Below are positions 6,997-63,597 of a stretch of DNA of 64,000 nt, piece after piece. The DNA comes from a virus. The stretch lies in the IMG/VR virus record IMGVR_UViG_3300020215_000052, positions 753 through 64,752 of that record. One strand, given 5' to 3'. Every line of letters begins with the position of its first letter. Positions within the stretch are counted from its first letter, which is position 1. Both the position numbers and the translations under genes were made by a program. The notes under the pieces were generated by a model, which saw nothing but the letters and a program-made list of their open reading frames with translations, had not been told where the DNA came from and did not search any database.

Positions 6997-7025
6997 TTGA
7001 CTCTCTTTGAACATTGTCGTATAGT
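6997..7025 (+). promoter_or_regulatory. sigma70 promoter TTGACT-N17-TATAGT
   Basis: near-consensus, in an AT-rich gap divergent from the repressor. Confidence 0.75.
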
Positions 7026-8299: not shown

Positions 8300-8315
8300 C
8301 GGCACGCTTGGTGCA
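8300..8315 (+). promoter_or_regulatory. putative sigma54 promoter CGGCACG-cttg-GTGCA
   Basis: GG-N10-GC spacing just upstream of the RBS of the Fis-HTH gene. Confidence 0.5.
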
Positions 8316-8340: not shown

Positions 8341-8667
8341 GTGACTGCCGCCCAGGTGACCGAAGCCGTAGATCGTGGTATGTCTGGAGCCCCATGCCGC
8401 GGGGTTCCCATGTCCAAGACCGGCCGGAAGCCAGCCCACCCACAACCGCAGCCCCTGGACCCCGTTACAGGTCTGCCGCGGGCCACCCTGCATCAAGCCA
8501 TCGAGATGGCAACAGCTCTCATCGAGCAGAAGATGGCGCTGGAAGCCCTCAAGACCACCGGATGGAATGTCTCACGCGCCGCCGAGTTGCTCGGCATCTC
8601 AAGGCGCAGCCTCCAGCTTCTCATGAAGCGCCACGGGATCAAGAAAACCGGGTCCGTGGCCGAGTAG
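8341..8667 (+). CDS. stand-alone Fis-type (HTH_8) DNA-binding protein
   Basis: EQKMALEALKTTGWNVSRAAELLGISRRSLQLLMKRHGI. Confidence 0.8.
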   Translation: MTAAQVTEAVDRGMSGAPCRGVPMSKTGRKPAHPQPQPLDPVTGLPRATLHQAIEMATALIEQKMALEALKTTGWNVSRAAELLGISRRSLQLLMKRHGIKKTGSVAE

Positions 8668-8870
8668 TACTGCATAAACACCTTCGCACCGCGCAAAGTG
8701 CTACGCGGCGCGGTTACACCAACGAAATCAGTAGTTTACGGTATTTTCCGCTTCCGCTGTGCGTAGGATATTACGCACATTGCCGCACAGAATCGTCGCT
8801 CTCCAAAGCGATCCCCCATAATTACCCAGTGTTTTCCAATGCTTACATAATGCGTAAACGTTAACGCGCC

Positions 8871-8886
8871 TGGCACGTCCCATGCT
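8871..8886 (+). promoter_or_regulatory. putative sigma54 promoter TGGCACG-tccc-ATGCT
   Basis: -24/-12 consensus in an AT-rich intergenic region with palindromes (e.g. TGCGTA-ggatat-TACGCA, 8760-8777). Confidence 0.6.
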
Positions 8887-8942
8887 TCTATATAGGCCAT
8901 GAGCGGACGGCACGGAGCCGCCGACGAACTGAAGGAACCAAG

Positions 8943-9167
8943 ATGACCACCGACATCAAGAGCGCCCTCGGATCCCTGGTCGCCAAGCTCAACAACATCA
9001 ACGCCACCGTGGACTACCTGAAGTCCCGCGCGATGATGGGGGACCTCAGGACCACGGAGGCCCACGCAAGCAGCCTGGCCGACATGGTGCGCCAGGCTGC
9101 TGAATTGGCCGACCAGATGGCCGGCCTGGCCGGCGGGGCGCGGCGAGAAACAAAACGCGCAGCCTGA
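8943..9167 (+). CDS. hypothetical helical protein
   Basis: AAGGA RBS and ORF. Confidence 0.65.
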   Translation: MTTDIKSALGSLVAKLNNINATVDYLKSRAMMGDLRTTEAHASSLADMVRQAAELADQMAGLAGGARRETKRAA

Positions 9168-25868: not shown

Positions 25869-26045
25869 CGGGGCGGCGAAGGCAGCAGGAGGCGTGGTCG
25901 CACCCAGAGGAGTGGCGCTTCGCCTTACGCCGTGGGGCCATCACGCTGTGGCTGCCGAAGCCCTCAGCGTGAGGACGGTAGGGTGTCTCTGGAGGCTCAC
26001 AAGGGCGGGGCGGGAAGCCCTGCGAGCGCTGAAGGGGGGTGTGTG

Positions 26046-26951
26046 ATGCGCATGGGAGAGGCGAGACGTGATGTGGTGCCGAATGGCGAGGCGAAGCTCT
26101 TCCACGAGGTCCGACCTCGGCGGGGGTTCGGCGACCTCTTGCTTCCACCGCTCGTTCAGCGGGCCTGCTCCGAACTGGTGGAAGAACACAACCGAGTGGA
26201 CCTCCTGCGTGCCCATAACCTCGAGCCACGTAACCGCGTCCTCCTCGTCGGCCCACCGGGCAACGGAAAGACGTCGCTCGCAGAGGCGCTCGCACAAGAG
26301 CTTGGAAACCCGATGCTCGTGGTGCGGTACGAAAGCATCATCGGCAGTTATCTCGGTGAGACCGCTGTACGGCTCGCCAAGCTCTTTGCCCACGCCCGGA
26401 CCCAGCGCTGCGTGCTCTTCTTCGACGAGTTCGACGTCATCGGCAAGGAGCGCGGCGACATCCACGAGACCGGCGAAATCAAGCGGGTCGTCAACTCGCT
26501 GCTGCTGCAGGTCGATCAGCTTCCGTCACACGTCGTCGTCGTAACCGCGACCAACCACAGCGAACTCCTCGACCGTGCCGTGTGGCGCCGCTTTCAGCTC
26601 CGGCTGGACTTGCCAGCTCCGGGAAAGGTACAGCGCATTGCGTGGCTGGAGATGTTCGAGAAGCGAAGCAGGCTCCAACTCGGCTGCACCCACGACCACC
26701 TCGCGCGCCGATTGGCTGGCCTGAGCTTTGCGGAGCTCGAGCAGTTCGCCCAGGACGTCCAACGTCGCTGCGTGCTCACCATGCCAGGTGCGGACATTAG
26801 GAGCATCATCGGAGACCGGCTGAGGCAGTGGACGAGCCGCGCCGCACCTACACCTACCTCGCCCGGGGACGAAGATACTGATCCGCCGTTGCTGATCCAG
26901 CCGGAACCCGGCACGGGGCCTGGAGGCATAAAAGGGCCCCGGCCGCCGTGA
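26046..26951 (+). CDS. AAA+ ATPase (IetA-like type usually paired with an S8 peptidase)
   Basis: GPPGNGKTSLAEALA, YLGETA, LFFDEFD, HETGEIKRVVNSLL, ATNH..LLDRAVWRRF. Confidence 0.85.
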   Translation: MRMGEARRDVVPNGEAKLFHEVRPRRGFGDLLLPPLVQRACSELVEEHNRVDLLRAHNLEPRNRVLLVGPPGNGKTSLAEALAQELGNPMLVVRYESIIGSYLGETAVRLAKLFAHARTQRCVLFFDEFDVIGKERGDIHETGEIKRVVNSLLLQVDQLPSHVVVVTATNHSELLDRAVWRRFQLRLDLPAPGKVQRIAWLEMFEKRSRLQLGCTHDHLARRLAGLSFAELEQFAQDVQRRCVLTMPGADIRSIIGDRLRQWTSRAAPTPTSPGDEDTDPPLLIQPEPGTGPGGIKGPRPP

Positions 26952-55242: not shown

Positions 55243-55482
55243 ATGCAACGGCCCATCGCAGAGCAGATACGGCTTCGCAGGGAAGATCTGGGCCTCACCC
55301 AAGCCGAGGCCGGCCGGCGCGCTGGTGTCGCCCAGAGCTGGTGGGCCCAGTGGGAGGGCGCCGAGCCAGCAAAGGGCGCCCGCACGCCCAGCGCCGAGCG
55401 CATGCCAGCGATCGCGGAAGCCCTGCGAGCGCGGTGGGTGAGCTCGGCCGAGGGGTGGTCCCTGGAGCCCCTTGAAAAATAA
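55243..55482 (+). CDS. XRE-family HTH regulator
   Basis: IRLRREDLGLTQAEAGRRAGVAQSWWAQWE. Confidence 0.85.
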   Translation: MQRPIAEQIRLRREDLGLTQAEAGRRAGVAQSWWAQWEGAEPAKGARTPSAERMPAIAEALRARWVSSAEGWSLEPLEK

Positions 55483-55503: not shown

Positions 55504-55532
55504 TTGACTATATAGCGCTGGCGCTATATATT
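55504..55532 (+). promoter_or_regulatory. sigma70 promoter TTGACT-N17-TATATT overlapped by palindromic operator TATATAGCGC-tg-GCGCTATATA
   Basis: perfect 10-bp inverted repeat at 55509-55530. Confidence 0.75.
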
Positions 55533-55581
55533 ACTCTCATAAGGCTGGCGATGGACGCCAGCCACCCAATCGGAGCAGCAA

Positions 55582-56803: not shown

Positions 56804-56832
56804 TTGACCAAATTCCCGCTACGATATATATT
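56804..56832 (+). promoter_or_regulatory. sigma70 promoter TTGACC-N17-TATATT with upstream inverted repeat AAAATATA...TATATTTT
   Basis: AT-rich island in GC-rich DNA. Confidence 0.7.
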
Positions 56833-56885
56833 ATATCCATGAACGCTGCGGTGGTCGCAGCGAGACCTGCCACATGGGGGAAAAC

Positions 56886-57623
56886 ATGCATCACAATTAC
56901 GAGGCGACTCTCACGCTCCGATGCTCTGCGGCGCCGGCCGGGCTGGCCAGCATTCTGGAGCCAACGCACGACGTGCGGTGGCTCTCCAAGACCACGGTTT
57001 GCGACCGGTTCACCCTGCGGGGGGTTCCGGCCAAACAGATCTACGTCCTCGCGGAGCAGGCGGTCGACCTTTCGGTGCAAGGTGACTTGTGTGTTGAGAT
57101 CGGGCGGAAGCTTGGTCGTTATGATAGAGAGGAGACGTCCGTCCTCACGATCCGCAGGTTCCGGGCAGGGATGCCAGCCCCCGGGGGGACGGCCACAATC
57201 CTTGCAACCGAGTCCGAGGTTCAGGTTGACCTCCAGGTGGTCGGCGGCGCATCCTGGCGGCGAGCTTTTCGCCGTCTCCGCTCCGACCTCAATGACTACA
57301 GCGCCGAGCGGCTGATCCTCTGGCACTTCTGGCGCTATTACACCCACCTCCTCCCCGAGTTGGAGGAGGTGCAGAAGTTCGCCGCAACCTGGACGATTCC
57401 TGGCGGCATGGGACTGGCTGAGGCCAACAGGTGCGCATCCCGGTGCCTGTACGACCTTAGCAGGGCACTGGGGTGGCGTAAGCTCACGCTGCGCGAGCGA
57501 GGGAAGCTCGGGTTCGATGAAGACGCTGCCCAGTGGCAGCGCATCTCCGAGTGCGAACGCCGGTACTCCGTTACCCTCTGCGGAGAGGCGACGACGTGCT
57601 CCTCCTACGGCATGGACGAGTGA
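56886..57623 (+). CDS. hypothetical protein
   Basis: ORF after promoter and hairpin. Confidence 0.65.
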   Translation: MHHNYEATLTLRCSAAPAGLASILEPTHDVRWLSKTTVCDRFTLRGVPAKQIYVLAEQAVDLSVQGDLCVEIGRKLGRYDREETSVLTIRRFRAGMPAPGGTATILATESEVQVDLQVVGGASWRRAFRRLRSDLNDYSAERLILWHFWRYYTHLLPELEEVQKFAATWTIPGGMGLAEANRCASRCLYDLSRALGWRKLTLRERGKLGFDEDAAQWQRISECERRYSVTLCGEATTCSSYGMDE

Positions 57624-57666
57624 CTCCCGGTGCGGCCTCCCTGGCCCACCGCAGAACGGGGGCCCC

Positions 57667-58020
57667 GTGAGCATCCCAGACCAGATTCGCTCCCGCCGCT
57701 TGGCCCTCGGGCTCACCCAGACCGAGGCAGCCGAGCGGGCCCGCACGTCCCAGAGTGCCTGGGCCCAGTACGAGAAAGGGGGTAAAACCCCAGACCTGGG
57801 GACCATGGAAAGAATCGCCTACGCCCTCGGGTCCAGGTGGGTACAGCGTGACGACGGTTGGGTCCTCGTGCCCGCCGAGGACCAGGCCCCCCTTTCTCCG
57901 TCTGAGTGGCGGCGGATTGTCGTGGAGGACGCTCTCCGAGGCGTCCCCTCCGCGATCGAGACGGGTCTTCGTCTCGGCTTTTTGCGCCGGGAGGGTGACC
58001 AGATAGTTCCGGTGGAGTAG
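57667..58020 (+). CDS. XRE-family HTH regulator (paralog of 55243)
   Basis: IRSRRLALGLTQTEAAERARTSQSAWAQYEKG. Confidence 0.85.
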   Translation: MSIPDQIRSRRLALGLTQTEAAERARTSQSAWAQYEKGGKTPDLGTMERIAYALGSRWVQRDDGWVLVPAEDQAPLSPSEWRRIVVEDALRGVPSAIETGLRLGFLRREGDQIVPVE

Positions 58021-58022
58021 AC

Positions 58023-58703
58023 ATGGCGAGGTTGCGGGCCCTGGACTACACCGAGGTTCAGGACTACTGGGACGAGCACCCCGATTCCAGCATCCCGGAG
58101 GTGGCCCGTGCCTTCGGCGTGGCCGTTAGCACGCTGAAGACGGCCAAGTACCGGGGACTGCTGAGCGACCCCCGGCCGGACCCCGGCAGATCGCACACCG
58201 GGCCCACCGGCACCTGGAAGATGGTCTGGGACCACGACGACCGCTTCCCAGGTCAGGATGCCGCGCACGTGGCGCAACTCCTTCGGCTCCGTCCCGGGAC
58301 CGTCATTTCCGCGAGGAAGGCGGCGCGCAGGCGAGCGGCCCCGGCTGCGCCAGCGGCGGCAGCGGCGCCACGGACCGGCGTGGCGGAGGCCATCCGGAAG
58401 GCCCGTACCCGCGCATCCCAGGAGATAGCCTCGGCTGCGGCCAGGGCCGAGGTCTCGGAGCAGACCTGGGCTGCATGGGAGGCGGGGGTCCGGGAACCGA
58501 CGCCCCTTGAGATGCTCGCCATCGCCCGGGCGCTGGGTTGCCGCTGGATCGGTGACCCGGACCGGGGCTGGATGCTCGTCCCCCTATCTGGCACGCCGCG
58601 TGCCTCTGAGGTAGCGGAGGTGCAACATGGGACGGAAGAAGGGGCTGTGGGGGATGCAGGAAGGTCGGCTCCAGGACGCGTTCGTGGCGTTGGCGCGGGC
58701 TGA
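58023..58703 (+). CDS. double-HTH regulator (N-terminal HTH plus C-terminal XRE)
   Basis: SIPEVARAFGVAVSTL; SEQTWAAWEAGVREP. Confidence 0.7.
   Translation: MARLRALDYTEVQDYWDEHPDSSIPEVARAFGVAVSTLKTAKYRGLLSDPRPDPGRSHTGPTGTWKMVWDHDDRFPGQDAAHVAQLLRLRPGTVISARKAARRRAAPAAPAAAAAPRTGVAEAIRKARTRASQEIASAAARAEVSEQTWAAWEAGVREPTPLEMLAIARALGCRWIGDPDRGWMLVPLSGTPRASEVAEVQHGTEEGAVGDAGRSAPGRVRGVGAG
58589..58604 (+). promoter_or_regulatory. putative sigma54 promoter TGGCACG-ccgc-GTGCC (also palindromic)
   Basis: GG-N10-GC just upstream of the RBS of the second Fis-HTH gene. Confidence 0.5.
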
Positions 58704-58878
58704 AATCCGCGCCGCCCTGGAGGAAACCCGCGGCAATCGGCAGCGTGCGGCCCACCTTCTGGGGGTGGACCGCCGTACCCTCTACGGATATCTCGACCGG
58801 CTCTTCACGCCGGAAGAGGTGGAGTCTCTCGGACCTGGGGATATTCTCCCCAGTAACGAGTCCAGAGAAACCGCCTAA
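58627..58878 (+). CDS. stand-alone Fis-type (HTH_8) DNA-binding protein
   Basis: EIRAALEETRGNRQRAAHLLGVDRRTLYGYL. Confidence 0.8.
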   Translation: MGRKKGLWGMQEGRLQDAFVALARAEIRAALEETRGNRQRAAHLLGVDRRTLYGYLDRLFTPEEVESLGPGDILPSNESRETA

Positions 58879-59047
58879 ATCCACCGCTTCTACGCACACT
58901 TAGACCACGCTGTAGATATTCGCCTCACCATGGGTCACCTTGACGGGGAGAATATCCACACACATGCCTGCCAGATGTGGTCTGCCTACTTAACCAAAAC
59001 TCAACGATTTCATGCACATACATGAGTGTGCATGAATATACACACAG

Positions 59048-59063
59048 TGGCACGCTGTGTGCT
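59048..59063 (+). promoter_or_regulatory. putative sigma54 promoter TGGCACG-ctgt-GTGCT with flanking palindromes
   Basis: matches the 8871 site (TGGCACG-N5-TGCTTCTATAT-N4-CATGA); inverted repeat TTCATGCACA/TGTGCATGAA upstream. Confidence 0.6.
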
Positions 59064-59115
59064 TCTATATCTATCATGAAGAGCGGCGATGGACGCCGCC
59101 GTGAAGGAGAGGCTC

Positions 59116-59715
59116 ATGAGCACCAAGACCATCCGTGAGGTAGAGGCCATCATCGAAGCCATCAAAACCGGCATCCAGGCCGGAGGAGACCCCGAGGACT
59201 GGGAGGCGGGCGAGTTCGAGGAGGCCCGCTCCCTAACCGCTGCTGTCGGGTGGCAGTGGGAGTTCACCACATGGCTCGCTACCCTCAGGGTTCTGGAGGG
59301 GGGCGACATCCCCGGCGCCGGGCGGCGCTGGGATGAGGAGACGAATGCCGCCGAGCCGACCCCTGCCCAAAGGGATGCCTTGGCGCGGCACGATTCCCTC
59401 GTCGCGAGGGCGAGGGAACTTGACGAGGCCCGGGCCTCCCTGGGCCCAGACGCGGCGGAGGAGGAGGATGAGCGTCTGCGGCTCGCCGCCGTTGAGGCGT
59501 GGGCTGAGGTTGCCCGGGATGCCGAGGCTTTGGAGGCGGCCGAGGCCGTCACACGGGCCATGGCCGTCACCCCGCCCGGACAGCCGGTGTGGGGAGGGGT
59601 TCGCGTCGGGCTGCGGCCCGACGATCCAATCCACGGAACCGTGGGTTTCCGTGGCATGCCCCGCGGGGCATGCGCGTGTCCGGCCTGTGTGGAGGCCGAC
59701 TACCTGACTACCTGA
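59116..59715 (+). CDS. hypothetical acidic protein, C-terminal CxCxxC
   Basis: GGAGAGG RBS. Confidence 0.65.
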   Translation: MSTKTIREVEAIIEAIKTGIQAGGDPEDWEAGEFEEARSLTAAVGWQWEFTTWLATLRVLEGGDIPGAGRRWDEETNAAEPTPAQRDALARHDSLVARARELDEARASLGPDAAEEEDERLRLAAVEAWAEVARDAEALEAAEAVTRAMAVTPPGQPVWGGVRVGLRPDDPIHGTVGFRGMPRGACACPACVEADYLTT

Positions 59716-59872: not shown

Positions 59873-60628
59873 ATGTTGTTGGACCTGGATCACGTCATGT
59901 TCTCCTACGGTGGCCACGCCACCGGGTCCGCGCGTAGATGCGCGGCCGAGGAGGTCAACGCACAGCTTGGTCTCCCCTGGGGGGCCAGCTGCCCGCCCTG
60001 CGTGCACCCCGCGGCCAGGCCCCTATGGGGCCTGATAGTCCCGCTGAACGACGCGTTTCCGGACCAGGCCGATGCCGATGCGGCGCGGACGGCCGCGATG
60101 GTGCCACTCCTGCGGGCGATCCTGTCCGCAGGAGCGGCCCCGCCGGAGAGCGGAGGCTGGGAGTTCGTCCTGGCGGACCTCGCGGCCCGCCGCTTCGCGC
60201 CCCGGGCGCTCCGCGCCGCGGGCCTCGACGCGGAGGCCGAGCGGTTGGAGGCCATGCCACAGGTCTCCGCCGCGACTGTGCGGGCGGCGGAGGAGGCGAC
60301 GCGGGCGGTGTGGGCGGAGGCGGCGGCGCGGTCGGCGCGGGCGGTGCGGGGGGATGTGTGGGCGGCGCGGGCATATGCGCGGCGGCTCCGGTGCGCGGCG
60401 GAGGCTGCGGAGGTGGCGACGCGGGCGACGCGGGCGGCGGAGGCGGCGGACGAGGCGACGGTATCGTGGTGGACGGTGCGGGCGGCGGAGGAGGCCACCC
60501 GGGCGGCGGCGGCGGTGCGGGGGGAGGTGTGGACGGCGCGGGTTGGCGTGGGCCCGCGGGCCTTGCGCCTGTTGCAGGAGACGGTCGCCGAGATCACGGC
60601 GGCCATCCAACACCCCCCTCCAAGCTGA
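59873..60628 (+). CDS. hypothetical Ala/Arg-rich helical protein
   Basis: GGAGG RBS; internal AEEATRA repeats. Confidence 0.6.
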   Translation: MLLDLDHVMFSYGGHATGSARRCAAEEVNAQLGLPWGASCPPCVHPAARPLWGLIVPLNDAFPDQADADAARTAAMVPLLRAILSAGAAPPESGGWEFVLADLAARRFAPRALRAAGLDAEAERLEAMPQVSAATVRAAEEATRAVWAEAAARSARAVRGDVWAARAYARRLRCAAEAAEVATRATRAAEAADEATVSWWTVRAAEEATRAAAAVRGEVWTARVGVGPRALRLLQETVAEITAAIQHPPPS

Positions 60629-61139: not shown

Positions 61140-62519
61140 GTGGGGAGGCCGCCGACGCTTCAGCTTCAACTCAGCTGCGGGCCGGCGTCCGAAAACCCGC
61201 GGGACAATTCGGTTGATGCCACCCGTGTGCTTGCGGTACGGTCATCTCCTACATCCGCTTTGCATGGCGTCGGGCGAGACGAACTCCAGCCCGAGGCGTG
61301 CGTAGGAGGAGGAGCTGTGGAAGAGCTTCTGCCCAACGGCGCCGGCAGCGCGCTGGATGCGGACGACAGTCCGCCGCAGAAGGAACGGCGCGAAGTCGGA
61401 GTTGAACCCGAGGTGTCGACACCGCTGCTCTCACAGGCCAAGGCCGACAGGCTGCTTAAAACCGCTGTGGCGGAAGTGGTAGGTCAGCGAGATTGCGACA
61501 TCATTACTTACAACGGCCACGTCACCCGCGGTGGCTATCAGCGGCTGTTGGCGATGCTGCTGAAGAAGGCCCATCCGAACCTGCTCCTTTGCTTGTCCAC
61601 CTGGGGTGGCGATGCACATGCTGCGTACCGCATAGCGCGCCTCCTGCGCAGTCGGTATAAGAAGTTCGCGGTCTACGTTCCCGCCTTCTGCAAGAGCGCG
61701 GGAACGCTCGTGGCCATCGGTGGATCAGAGCTGGTCATGACCGACGAGGCCGAGTTGGGTCCCCTTGACGCGCAGATCCTCCGCCGCGGGGAGATTGGCG
61801 AGCGGGCGTCAGGACTTGAGGTGGATGAGGCGATTGACTGGCTCCAAGACCGGCTGCTCGACAGCTTCCGGGAGTACTTGATGGACATCCGCCTGAGTGG
61901 TATGCCCACGAAGCTGGCAGCAGAGTTGGCGGGCACCCTCTCGCTGGGTTTGGTCACGCCTATTATCGCCCAGGTGGACCCAATGCGCATTGGGGAGATC
62001 CAGCGCGCGGTTGCAATCGCTTTGGAGTACGGCAGGCGCCTCGGTACCTCGCTCAAACCGGGAGCTCTGGACCGCCTCGTTACTTCCTACCCCGACCACT
62101 CCTTCGTTATCGATCGCGAGGAGGCGTCGGAACTGTTCAAGGTCGTGTCGCCCCAGACCGACCACGAGTATATAATGGCGCTGCTGCTCGGCCTCTGCGG
62201 GCATCCTGTTGCCGGCGAGCCAGCGGTGAAGATGATCTCTGGCGACATTGCCGCCCAGGAGACGACGACCCATGACCCGAATTCAGCACACGGATCTGCG
62301 GGATTGCCAAAGAGAAAGGCACGTTCCACAACGGCCTCTTCCAAGGTACAGCCTGTCCCGAGAACTCCGAAGGCTCCGAGCGGAGCGGGCGGAAGAGCCA
62401 ATGGGCCTTCCAGCAGAGGTGGTGGAACATCTGCTGCAAAGGGTCACCGAGGAGACAAAGTAAACGGTGAAGAGCCTCCGGACCAGCCGGCGAATGGTCC
62501 ATCGTCGTCCACACCCTGA
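61140..62519 (+). CDS. SDH_sah (ClpP/crotonase-like) serine protease-family protein; start uncertain
   Basis: LSTWGGDAHAAYRIARLL...VYVPAFCKSAGTLVAIG...ELGPLDAQ...YPDHSFVIDREEA. Confidence 0.8.
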   Translation: MGRPPTLQLQLSCGPASENPRDNSVDATRVLAVRSSPTSALHGVGRDELQPEACVGGGAVEELLPNGAGSALDADDSPPQKERREVGVEPEVSTPLLSQAKADRLLKTAVAEVVGQRDCDIITYNGHVTRGGYQRLLAMLLKKAHPNLLLCLSTWGGDAHAAYRIARLLRSRYKKFAVYVPAFCKSAGTLVAIGGSELVMTDEAELGPLDAQILRRGEIGERASGLEVDEAIDWLQDRLLDSFREYLMDIRLSGMPTKLAAELAGTLSLGLVTPIIAQVDPMRIGEIQRAVAIALEYGRRLGTSLKPGALDRLVTSYPDHSFVIDREEASELFKVVSPQTDHEYIMALLLGLCGHPVAGEPAVKMISGDIAAQETTTHDPNSAHGSAGLPKRKARSTTASSKVQPVPRTPKAPSGAGGRANGPSSRGGGTSAAKGHRGDKVNGEEPPDQPANGPSSSTP

Positions 62520-62749: not shown

Positions 62750-63298
62750 TCAGGGTCGATCTGGTGGGGCGTCAGCAGGTGAGGGAAGCCCAGCAGGGCT
62801 GACGGTCACCGCGACGCCCTCGGGCCGGCCCACGGCCCAGCGGCGCTCCACGGCCAGGCGTACCACGGCGGCGTCGTCCTGGTAGGCGATGCCGTTGAGC
62901 GCGTCCAGGACCAGCTTGCAGACGTTGTCGACGTCGGGTTTGCCCATCGGGAGGGAGCGCCCGGCCTGGGCCTGCTCCTTCCTCCACTTCGGCCAGCTGG
63001 CCGGCACGGCGTGGTAGGCCACGAGATCGACGGCGACGGGGCCGACCAGGGGCCCGCGGCCGCGCATGACCCTTCGAGCTGCCCAGGCCACGGCATCCTC
63101 GTGCTGACGGGTCGCATCCGGCGTGAAGGCGTGGCCCTGGCCGACCCGCGGCCTGGCCTTCCCCCGGGGCGGGCCCGCGACCTCGAACCTGATGGACTCC
63201 TGGGCCGCCTGGACGCCCGTCTCCGGGTTGGGGCGGGTCCTGCGCTGACCGGCGCTGCGGGGCCGGGGCGCCCGGTGGAGAAGGCGGGTGGTGCTCAC
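62750..63298 (-). CDS. rusA: RusA-family Holliday junction resolvase
   Basis: PRGKARPR...KPDVDNVCKLVLDALNGIAYQDDAAV. Confidence 0.9.
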   Translation of the reverse strand: MSTTRLLHRAPRPRSAGQRRTRPNPETGVQAAQESIRFEVAGPPRGKARPRVGQGHAFTPDATRQHEDAVAWAARRVMRGRGPLVGPVAVDLVAYHAVPASWPKWRKEQAQAGRSLPMGKPDVDNVCKLVLDALNGIAYQDDAAVVRLAVERRWAVGRPEGVAVTVSPAGLPSPADAPPDRP

Positions 63299-63597
63299 AG
63301 CTTCACCCGCAAGGCGGGGATGCCCTCGTCAGCGAAGAGGTCCATGAGGCGCTTCGCCCCCACCGGGTTGGCGCTGTGCACCCAGACCTTCGCCGGCCGG
63401 GTATCGTGCACCCACAACATCATCCTGGCGCAGTCGTAGCCATCGGAGTCGTCGGGGCCGAGGTCATGGTCGAAGCTCACCAGCTCCAGCGTGGGCCGCT
63501 GCGCCACGATGGACAGGAACTCCGGCACTGTCCGCGCATGAACCCAGTCGGTCCCGTCATCAGGCGGAACCCTCATGTCGTCCAGAAACAGCCGCAT
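63295..63597 (-). CDS. cyclic-phosphate-processing receiver-domain protein
   Basis: LFLDDMR...VSFDHDLG...GYDCA...VHSANPVG. Confidence 0.8.
   Translation of the reverse strand: MRLFLDDMRVPPDDGTDWVHARTVPEFLSIVAQRPTLELVSFDHDLGPDDSDGYDCARMMLWVHDTRPAKVWVHSANPVGAKRLMDLFADEGIPALRVKL

Follow-up and report, generated by a model that had tools for sequence, protein, structure and literature searches.

Layout of the two modules

The window analysed here, by which we mean the whole stretch of 64,000 nucleotides (nt) from positions 753 to 64,752 of IMG/VR virus record IMGVR_UViG_3300020215_000052, makes up most of that 68,012-bp record, and it carries two regulatory modules in which a small gene for an HTH_8 protein stands between two sites resembling the -24/-12 promoters of sigma-54. 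In both modules, in fact, the order is a weaker site, the HTH_8 gene, an AT-rich spacer with palindromes of its own, a strong site and then an operon (Table 1). The original prediction had presented module 2 as a repetition of the arrangement around position 8871, naming TGGCACGccgcGTGCC, the palindromes TTCATGCACA/TGTGCATGAA and CACACAG/CTGTGTG, TGGCACGctgtGTGCTTCTATATctatCATGA and its twin TGGCACGtcccATGCTTCTATATaggcCATGA, and all of these words lie where it had placed them; the order itself does occur twice in the genome, far beyond chance when judged by site counts and shuffles. What we describe are probably two paralogous regulatory cassettes in a complete 68-kb phage, which would tie two operons to a host activator.

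Table 1. Features of the two modules and of related loci, in window coordinates (SD, Shine-Dalgarno sequence; aa, amino acids).
Feature	Position	Strand	Details
Weaker -24/-12-like site, module 1	8300..8315	+	cGGCACGcttgGTGCA; ahead of HTH_8 gene 1
HTH_8 gene 1	8341..8667	+	108 aa from GTG 8341, AGGAGG upstream; PF02954 E 2.9e-12
Module-1 spacer	8668..8870	.	203 nt, AT-rich; TGCGTAA half-sites; palindrome 8852-8867
Module-1 palindrome, 8-nt arms	8758-8779		TGTGCGTA-N6-TACGCACA
Strong -24/-12-like site, module 1	8871	+	TGGCACGtcccATGCT; then TATAT, CATGA 8898-8902, ACGGA-loop hairpin, SD, ATG 8943; region 8871..8945
Weaker -24/-12-like site, module 2	58589..58604	+	TGGCACGccgcGTGCC; GG 58590-91, GC 58602-03
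HTH_8 gene 2	58627..58878	+	83 aa, activator-type DNA-binding domain only; PF02954 E 3.5e-11
Module-2 spacer	58879..59047	.	169 nt, AT-rich, non-coding
Module-2 spacer repeats			TGTAGATATTC / GAATATCCACA at 58911 / 58950; GAATATACACA at 59034; TACGCACA at 58891
Module-2 palindrome, 10-nt arms	59009-59036		TTCATGCACA 59009-59018, N8, TGTGCATGAA 59027-59036
Strong -24/-12-like site, module 2	59048..59063	+	TGGCACGctgtGTGCT; GG 59049-50, GC 59061-62; flanks CACACAG 59041-59047 / CTGTGTG 59055-59061
Predicted start region, module 2	59066..59118	+	TATAT, CATGA 59075-79, hairpin GCGGCG-AUGGA-CGCCGC 59083-59099, SD AAGGAG, ATG 59116
First gene of operon from 59048	59116..59715	+	199 aa, orphan; next come 59873-60628 and a gene for a ClpP/SDH-type protease, which ends at 62519
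Leader hairpins	55543-55563, 56844-56862, 8904-8923, 59083-59099		loops AUGGA, GUGGU, ACGGA, AUGGA
Sigma-70-type promoter	6997		TTGACT-17-TATAGT; shares the layout from -10 to CATAA
Sigma-70-type promoter	55504		TTGACT-17-TATATT; in AT-rich island
Sigma-70-type early promoter	56805..56838	+	TTGACC-17-TATATT, then CATGA and hairpin; heads the operon ending in HTH_8 gene 2
Two tandem XRE-type (HTH_3/HTH_31) paralogues	57517-58020 and 58023-58703	+	assigned by Pfam
Classical-clade AAA ATPase	25932-26951		among DNA methylase genes; PF00004, E 1e-30; no GAFTGA loop

Sigma-54-type sites and their context

Both strong sites read TGGCACG-N4-RTGCTTCTATAT and keep the GG-N10-GC spacing exactly, and their likeness runs on through the strings TGGCACGctgtGTGCTTCTATATctatCATGA (59048-59079) and TGGCACGtcccATGCTTCTATATaggcCATGA (8871-8902). 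When compared with the consensus TGGCACG-N4-TTGCW, they match at 11 of the 12 specified positions, and the sites at 58589 and 8300 at 10 of 12. The exact word TGGCACG-N5-TGC is found three times in the window (8871, 58589 and 59048, all on the + strand) against an expectation of 0.24, a count that not one of 100 shuffles reached. Shortened to GGCACG-N5-TGC and searched across the whole record, the word occurs four times on the forward strand, always within the two modules and flanking the sole two HTH_8 genes, and three times on the reverse strand, where one occurrence is the palindromic partner of 58589; a backwards-read control gave 1 and 0. When the four sites are compared, the left half TGGCACG hardly changes while the right half varies (ATGCT, GTGCT, GTGCC, GTGCA), an asymmetry that would fit recognition by sigma-54 and not a symmetric operator.

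Each strong site closes the 3' edge of an AT-rich non-coding island, 54-57 nt 5' of an ATG and co-oriented with the gene, and is intergenic, whereas 58589 lies in the tail of an open reading frame (ORF). A scan for sigma-70 promoters, which does detect the one at 6997, reported none at 8871 or 59048, neither of which has a -35 box. The sigma-70 promoters at 6997, 55504 and 56805 are near-consensus and lie in other AT-rich islands, and where they have their -35 box the strong sites have TGGCACG-N4-RTGCT. Farther downstream, both sites and the sigma-70-type promoters at 55504 and 56805 lead into CAT(A/G)A, after which comes a leader hairpin whose loop has five bases, and all four hairpins fold as drawn. 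Given the match to the consensus, the spacing and the layout, the sigma-54-type promoters that the original prediction had proposed at the strong sites are the best fit, and we consider it likely that both sites are sigma-54 promoters.

A different reading of the same DNA would make these activator-dependent sigma-70 promoters, in which TATAT serves as the -10 box, no -35 box is needed and TGGCACG-N5-TGC is a site for a phage regulator of the HTH_8 or XRE type. The late promoters of Mu or P2 are built in this way, with a -10 box, no -35 box and dependence on an activator. The layout of TATAT, CATGA and hairpin is indeed common with the phage sigma-70 promoters, GCAC-N5-GTGC has a partial palindromic symmetry, reminiscent of NtrC-type half-sites, that is perfect at 58589, at least five small helix-turn-helix regulators are encoded beside these sites, and the phage lacks sigma-54 machinery. 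A dimer operator, however, would not be expected to hold its left half fixed and let its right half vary, and the 11/12 match at both sites would have to be a coincidence (0.24 occurrences expected per window); in addition, TATAT is 2 nt nearer to CATGA than is the -10 box at any of the three sigma-70 promoters, and in bacteria the same word in its extended form marks sigma-54 promoters. We regard this reading as unlikely.

It is also conceivable, even if very improbable in our judgement, that there is no promoter function at all, in which case the stem-loop at 59041-59061 would act as an intrinsic terminator for the operon upstream, the GC-rich palindrome at 58589 would be incidental and the likeness of the modules would be a product of duplication. 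A terminator scan does flag CACACAGTGGCACGCTGTGTG and its T-rich tail, and the frequency of one-mismatch sites, given below, agrees with such a view. Yet module 1 has no equivalent hairpin (z = 0.22) and still carries the same word, spacing and downstream layout, and neutral DNA should not keep 23 identical bases in register when the proteins encoded nearby have diverged (48% identity over 29 residues).

The two weaker sites mirror each other, with the GGAGG of the HTH_8 gene starting 13 nt past the GC at 8300 and 12 nt past it at 58589, and as promoters they would be the least secure part of our proposal. The regions around them share no RNA-fold similarity, and RNA structure was discarded as the reason for the conserved sequence 5' of the HTH_8 genes, the module-1 region folding worse than shuffles (z = +1.68).

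The HTH_8 proteins and their spacers

The second, divergent HTH_8 gene that had been announced for module 2 is real: the two proteins score 43.1 and 46.6 bits against PF02954, for which the Pfam gathering cut-off is 22, and they can be aligned with each other over 29 residues only, at 48% identity and within the helix-turn-helix. A six-frame family search returned exactly these two HTH_8 genes in the whole record. Protein 1 looks like a Pro-rich linker joined to an activator-type DNA-binding domain, and protein 2 has the appearance of the bare domain; their recognition helices are unlike, as are the palindromes of the two modules. Gene 1 is the final gene of the operon that starts at the sigma-70 promoter at 6997, and the SD of gene 2 is GGAGG at 58616-58620, 6 nt 5' of the ATG. 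Neither protein has the PF00158 AAA+ domain with GAFTGA loop by which bacterial enhancer-binding proteins are recognised. Among solved sequences, a search of the PDB gave as the closest ZraR's C-terminal DNA-binding domain, the nearest to protein 2, and 2m8g, both activator domains, along with a designed HTH_8 peptide, and it returned no significant match to Fis; by this comparison the proteins are not Fis proper.

A homodimer model of protein 2 reached an ipSAE of 0.44 (best control 0.20), a mark attained among solved homodimers by 20 of 30 and among single chains by 1 of 23, with a pLDDT of 74-75 and at least 96% of contacts shared between runs; this pass may nevertheless be a memory of solved Fis/NtrC-type dimers. 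No close relatives of either protein were found in IMG/VR, in a collection of 5.8 billion proteins or among GenBank phages, and an exhaustive HMMER search gave domain-level matches only.

As for the spacers, the module-2 palindrome was equalled in 3 of 2000 dinucleotide shuffles (P ~0.0015) and that of module 1 in 84 of 2000 (P ~0.042). On balance we lean, if only slightly, towards the view that each HTH_8 protein binds the spacer downstream of its own gene. The alternative, which seems quite unlikely to us, is that these proteins act elsewhere, be it as decoys on host enhancers or as Fis-like architectural proteins, and that the palindromes serve other regulators such as the XRE paralogues. 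The 8-mer TGTGCGTA bears on this, as it has four copies in the window (8758, 8772, 55484, 58891) where a base-composition estimate expects about one, all of them in the regulatory DNA of three promoters, including just 5' of 55504 and in the module-2 spacer; such a distribution hints at cross-talk between the modules or at a different binder, and it suggests a regulator common to the modules. A third XRE gene lies directly 5' of the 55504 promoter. Other phages, moreover, have HTH_8-only genes without sigma-54 sites (see below). Against this stand the geometry of gene, spacer and promoter, which is that of bacterial activator cassettes, and the fact that recognition helices and main palindromes both differ between the modules. 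A further point on the same side, weak as evidence, comes from P0040 in L088, an activator fragment with a DNA-binding domain that shares 60% identity with HTH_8 protein 2 across ~40 residues: the inverted repeats GTGTGCGATGAA of its enhancer resemble the module-2 half-site TGTGCATGAA, but the arms are oppositely oriented. A copy of TGTGCATGAA in phage locus L091 was considered as an operator as well and was set aside as start-codon context. IHF-like words were noticed in the spacers, by eye only.

A complete genome without sigma-54 machinery

The same sequence recurs, 100% identical and with other break points, in two further assemblies, the three spanning 67,999-68,040 bp, and one of these two joins the end of the record to its start through a 17-bp overlap. 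The differing break points and the bridging overlap show that the genome is complete. It is circularly permuted, its unit length is 67,995 bp, and the CheckV completeness of 61% is an underestimate. The record encodes a large terminase (TerL), an S49 prohead protease, an HK97-like capsid protein and DnaB with a DnaC-like loader, as well as a RecT-like protein, a tyrosine integrase, several DNA methylases, a Mom-like protein and RusA; this 68-kb phage is probably temperate.

Profile searches of the complete record returned neither RpoN (PF04552) nor the sigma-54 activator ATPase domain PF00158, and no real gene in it carries a GAFTGA-like loop (G[AS][FYW][TS]G[AS]); since the genome is complete, these absences hold for the whole phage. 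Apart from the DnaC-like loader, it has a single AAA+ protein, the classical PF00004 ATPase, which by its sequence features is no recognisable sigma-54 activator. There are no tRNA genes in the phage genome. Hints on the host were sought in DnaB, which among the matches listed in genome contigs reached only 38-46% identity, mostly to Clostridia, and in TerL, whose Acidobacteriota matches came to 39-43% identity at most and were equalled by Aeromonas phages; TerL has no relatives in IMG/VR.

Promoter word and HTH_8 genes in other genomes

Scanning metagenomes for TGGCACG-N5-TGCTTCTATAT yielded 57 loci, in ~80% of which a T fills the unconstrained position ahead of TGC, reproducing the TTGC consensus, and those loci that were inspected sit 5' of gene starts; by these sequence features the extended word is a bona fide class of sigma-54 promoter in bacteria. 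Five full-length activator genes (L111, L113, L127, L135 and L136), each with HTH_8 as its last domain, have the same direction as the promoter and end ~160-640 nt upstream of it, four of the five at 160-240 nt, a range in which the phage spacers of 203 and 169 nt fall. From this geometry and from the type of DNA-binding domain, therefore, the phage modules have the anatomy of an activator cassette minus the receiver and the ATPase. Three supposed HTH_8-only examples (L087, L088 and L161) were dropped as broken or contig-truncated full-length activators.

The original prediction had proposed, as a check, an enrichment of sigma-54 sites around HTH_8-only genes in related phage and Myxococcota prophage contigs, and had named beforehand a lack of such enrichment as the result that would refute it. 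This is what we found: none of the 9 HTH_8-only genes of other phage contigs has a strong -24/-12 site within 2.5 kb, and the nine comparison records, ~555 kb in total, hold 1 strict match, which is the chance level. Because these genes are only domain-level relatives of the phage proteins, this negative argues against generality and not against the modules described here, and among the genomes sampled the link between HTH_8 and sigma-54 sites is specific to this one.

Two unrelated low-GC phage contigs do carry TGGCACG-N4-RTGCTTCTATAT 5' of genes, namely L001/L002 (431-453) and L003 (11545-11567, - strand), and neither phage has a gene for an activator or for an HTH_8 protein. In L001, two direct repeats GCGTAGATTGTCACAT lie ~60-90 nt upstream. 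Scans of viral and metagenome contigs with the promoter word returned sigma-54 promoters of bacteria or of unrelated phages and no kin of the phage studied here, and the literature searched gave no account of sigma-54 promoters in phages being combined with regulators made of a DNA-binding domain only.

Proposed mechanism and its weak points

Sigma-54 promoters need an ATPase activator to open them and are otherwise silent, and such activators are the output of many bacterial signalling pathways. In the mechanism that we propose, host RNA polymerase bearing sigma-54 would sit on the -24/-12 element, and opening of the promoter would rely on a host enhancer-binding protein, because RpoN and an activator ATPase are both missing from the phage genome. 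A dimer of the phage HTH_8 protein on the spacer palindromes would then decide whether the host activator can act, and the strong promoter (TGGCACG-N4-RTGCT) would start the next operon through the conserved leader hairpin; the weaker sites just 5' of the HTH_8 genes may belong to the same promoter class and have an internal or autoregulatory role. As for the sign of regulation, competition or gating would be the most likely mode, competition being the simpler assumption for a DNA-binding domain without ATPase, with tethering of the activator less likely. This combined model, in which host sigma-54 holoenzyme and host ATPase are gated by phage dimers consisting of the DNA-binding domain only, is one that we hold to be evenly balanced between right and wrong.

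There is a bolder version, which we find distinctly improbable, in which the phage proteins form one part of a split enhancer-binding protein and, instead of blocking the host ATPase, would bring or redirect an AAA+ activator of the host, or another remodeller, to phage enhancers. If it were true, two operons, one of them running into recombination and replication genes, would fire only when host sigma-54 signalling is active, and a route of lytic expression would be tied to host physiology and not to the SOS response.

A number of observations weigh against our interpretation and are best considered together. One-mismatch sites occur at chance frequency (11 found, 8 expected), and since 8300 is among them, it counts through its position alone, while 58589 is a perfect palindrome (GGCACG-ccg-CGTGCC) in the 3' tail of the XRE ORF that lies upstream. 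At the phage sites TGC is preceded by A or G, where T is usual; the characterised sigma-54 promoters of Myxococcus xanthus, however, include the -12 variants CTGCT, GTGCT and GTGTT (PMC9765219), so that the phage RTGCT falls inside their range. Transcription starting at the A of CATGA, the predicted start, would lie 14 nt from the C of GC and would put GC at -15/-14, ~2 nt beyond the canonical place; TATAT could act as a sigma-70 -10 box, and the 59048 site is inside a terminator-like hairpin. The distances of the palindromes differ, with ~-51 and ~-138 in module 2 as compared with ~-128 in module 1. The first gene downstream is an orphan, as are the HTH_8 proteins, and covariation analysis of the modules is impossible because the HTH_8 proteins have no close relatives. 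The DnaB and TerL comparisons single out no host, the 9 genes from other phages gave the negative result reported above, and we know of no protein consisting of a DNA-binding domain only that gates phage sigma-54 promoters. We acknowledge, finally, that the value of the work is limited by its resting on a single uncultured genome of a single lineage without relatives.

Relation to known systems

The bacterial sigma-54 enhancer cassettes (NtrC-glnAp2, and Nla28, Nla6 and ActB of M. xanthus; PMC9765219) use the same -24/-12 word, and in them a gene ending in HTH_8 lies 160-240 nt upstream, co-directional and followed by a palindromic spacer, which is the layout of the phage. The myxobacterial cascades also resemble the phage in having a -24/-12-like site ahead of the regulator gene. 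In spite of these commonalities, the phage genes lack both the receiver and the AAA+ (GAFTGA) domain of their bacterial counterparts, so that their products cannot remodel sigma-54, and the phage cassette is viral, with a leader hairpin specific to the phage after its promoter.

Fis of E. coli (~98 residues) is small, dimeric and made of HTH_8 without an ATPase, as are the phage proteins, whose dimeric state is predicted, and Morett and Bork reportedly proposed in 1998 that Fis descends from the DNA-binding domain of NtrC. Protein 2, however, has only ~24 residues before its HTH_8 match, which leaves little room for N-terminal beta-hairpin arms like those of Fis, and the apparent targets of the phage proteins are predicted to be discrete palindromes beside sigma-54-type promoters. 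FleT of Cereibacter, FlgR of Helicobacter and CtcC of Chlamydia are activators without a DNA-binding domain, so that the ATPase and DNA-binding functions are separable; the phage proteins are the complement of these three, with the DNA-binding domain present and the ATPase absent.

The early and delayed-early control of lambdoid phages has serial promoters, with a gene for a small helix-turn-helix regulator before them and a pentaloop hairpin after them, as has this phage, in which, unlike in lambdoid phages, two of the five promoters carry -24/-12 elements in place of -35/-10 elements. A phage with sigma-54 promoters before whole operons and only the DNA-binding halves of their activators would couple its programme to host signalling, unlike the logic of repressor and SOS. 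The two cassettes may, in addition, offer a natural example of two protein-operator sets that are orthogonal to each other while the promoter cores beside them are otherwise the same.

Leaders and neighbouring regulators

The leader hairpins are placed much like the boxB/nut sites of lambdoid phages; an N-like protein was not identified in the phage, and no Rfam family was matched. In read-through RNA of 59040-59121, pairing is predicted between the promoter's GCUUCU and the downstream SD region, whereas RNA started at the promoter leaves the SD free. The idea of an insulator built on this pairing of promoter CUUC with the SD was abandoned, as the fold z was -2.34 in module 2 but 0.22 in module 1. 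No relatives of the first gene downstream of 59048 were found. In a leftward operon, a protein with a cREC_REC (cyclic-phosphate-processing receiver) domain adjoins RusA (genes at 63295-63597 and 62750-63298, both on the - strand).

XRE-type genes recur along the region upstream of module 2. The second of the tandem paralogues has an ORF that extends 77 nt beyond the start of HTH_8 gene 2 (58627-58703) in another frame, and its 39-residue tail, which houses the 58589 palindrome, has no counterpart in the paralogues. A third gene of the type, at 55243-55482, lies directly 5' of the 55504 promoter, and the three share the C-terminal motif ALGxRW...GWxLxP, each standing immediately 5' of a promoter region or an HTH_8 gene, which suggests a serial cascade of regulator and then promoter along 55-59 kb. 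The 55504 promoter itself has in its spacer (55504-55532) a perfect palindrome with 8-nt arms, TATAGCGC-tg-GCGCTATA, which overlaps the -10 box and is likely, to judge from its position, to be an operator.

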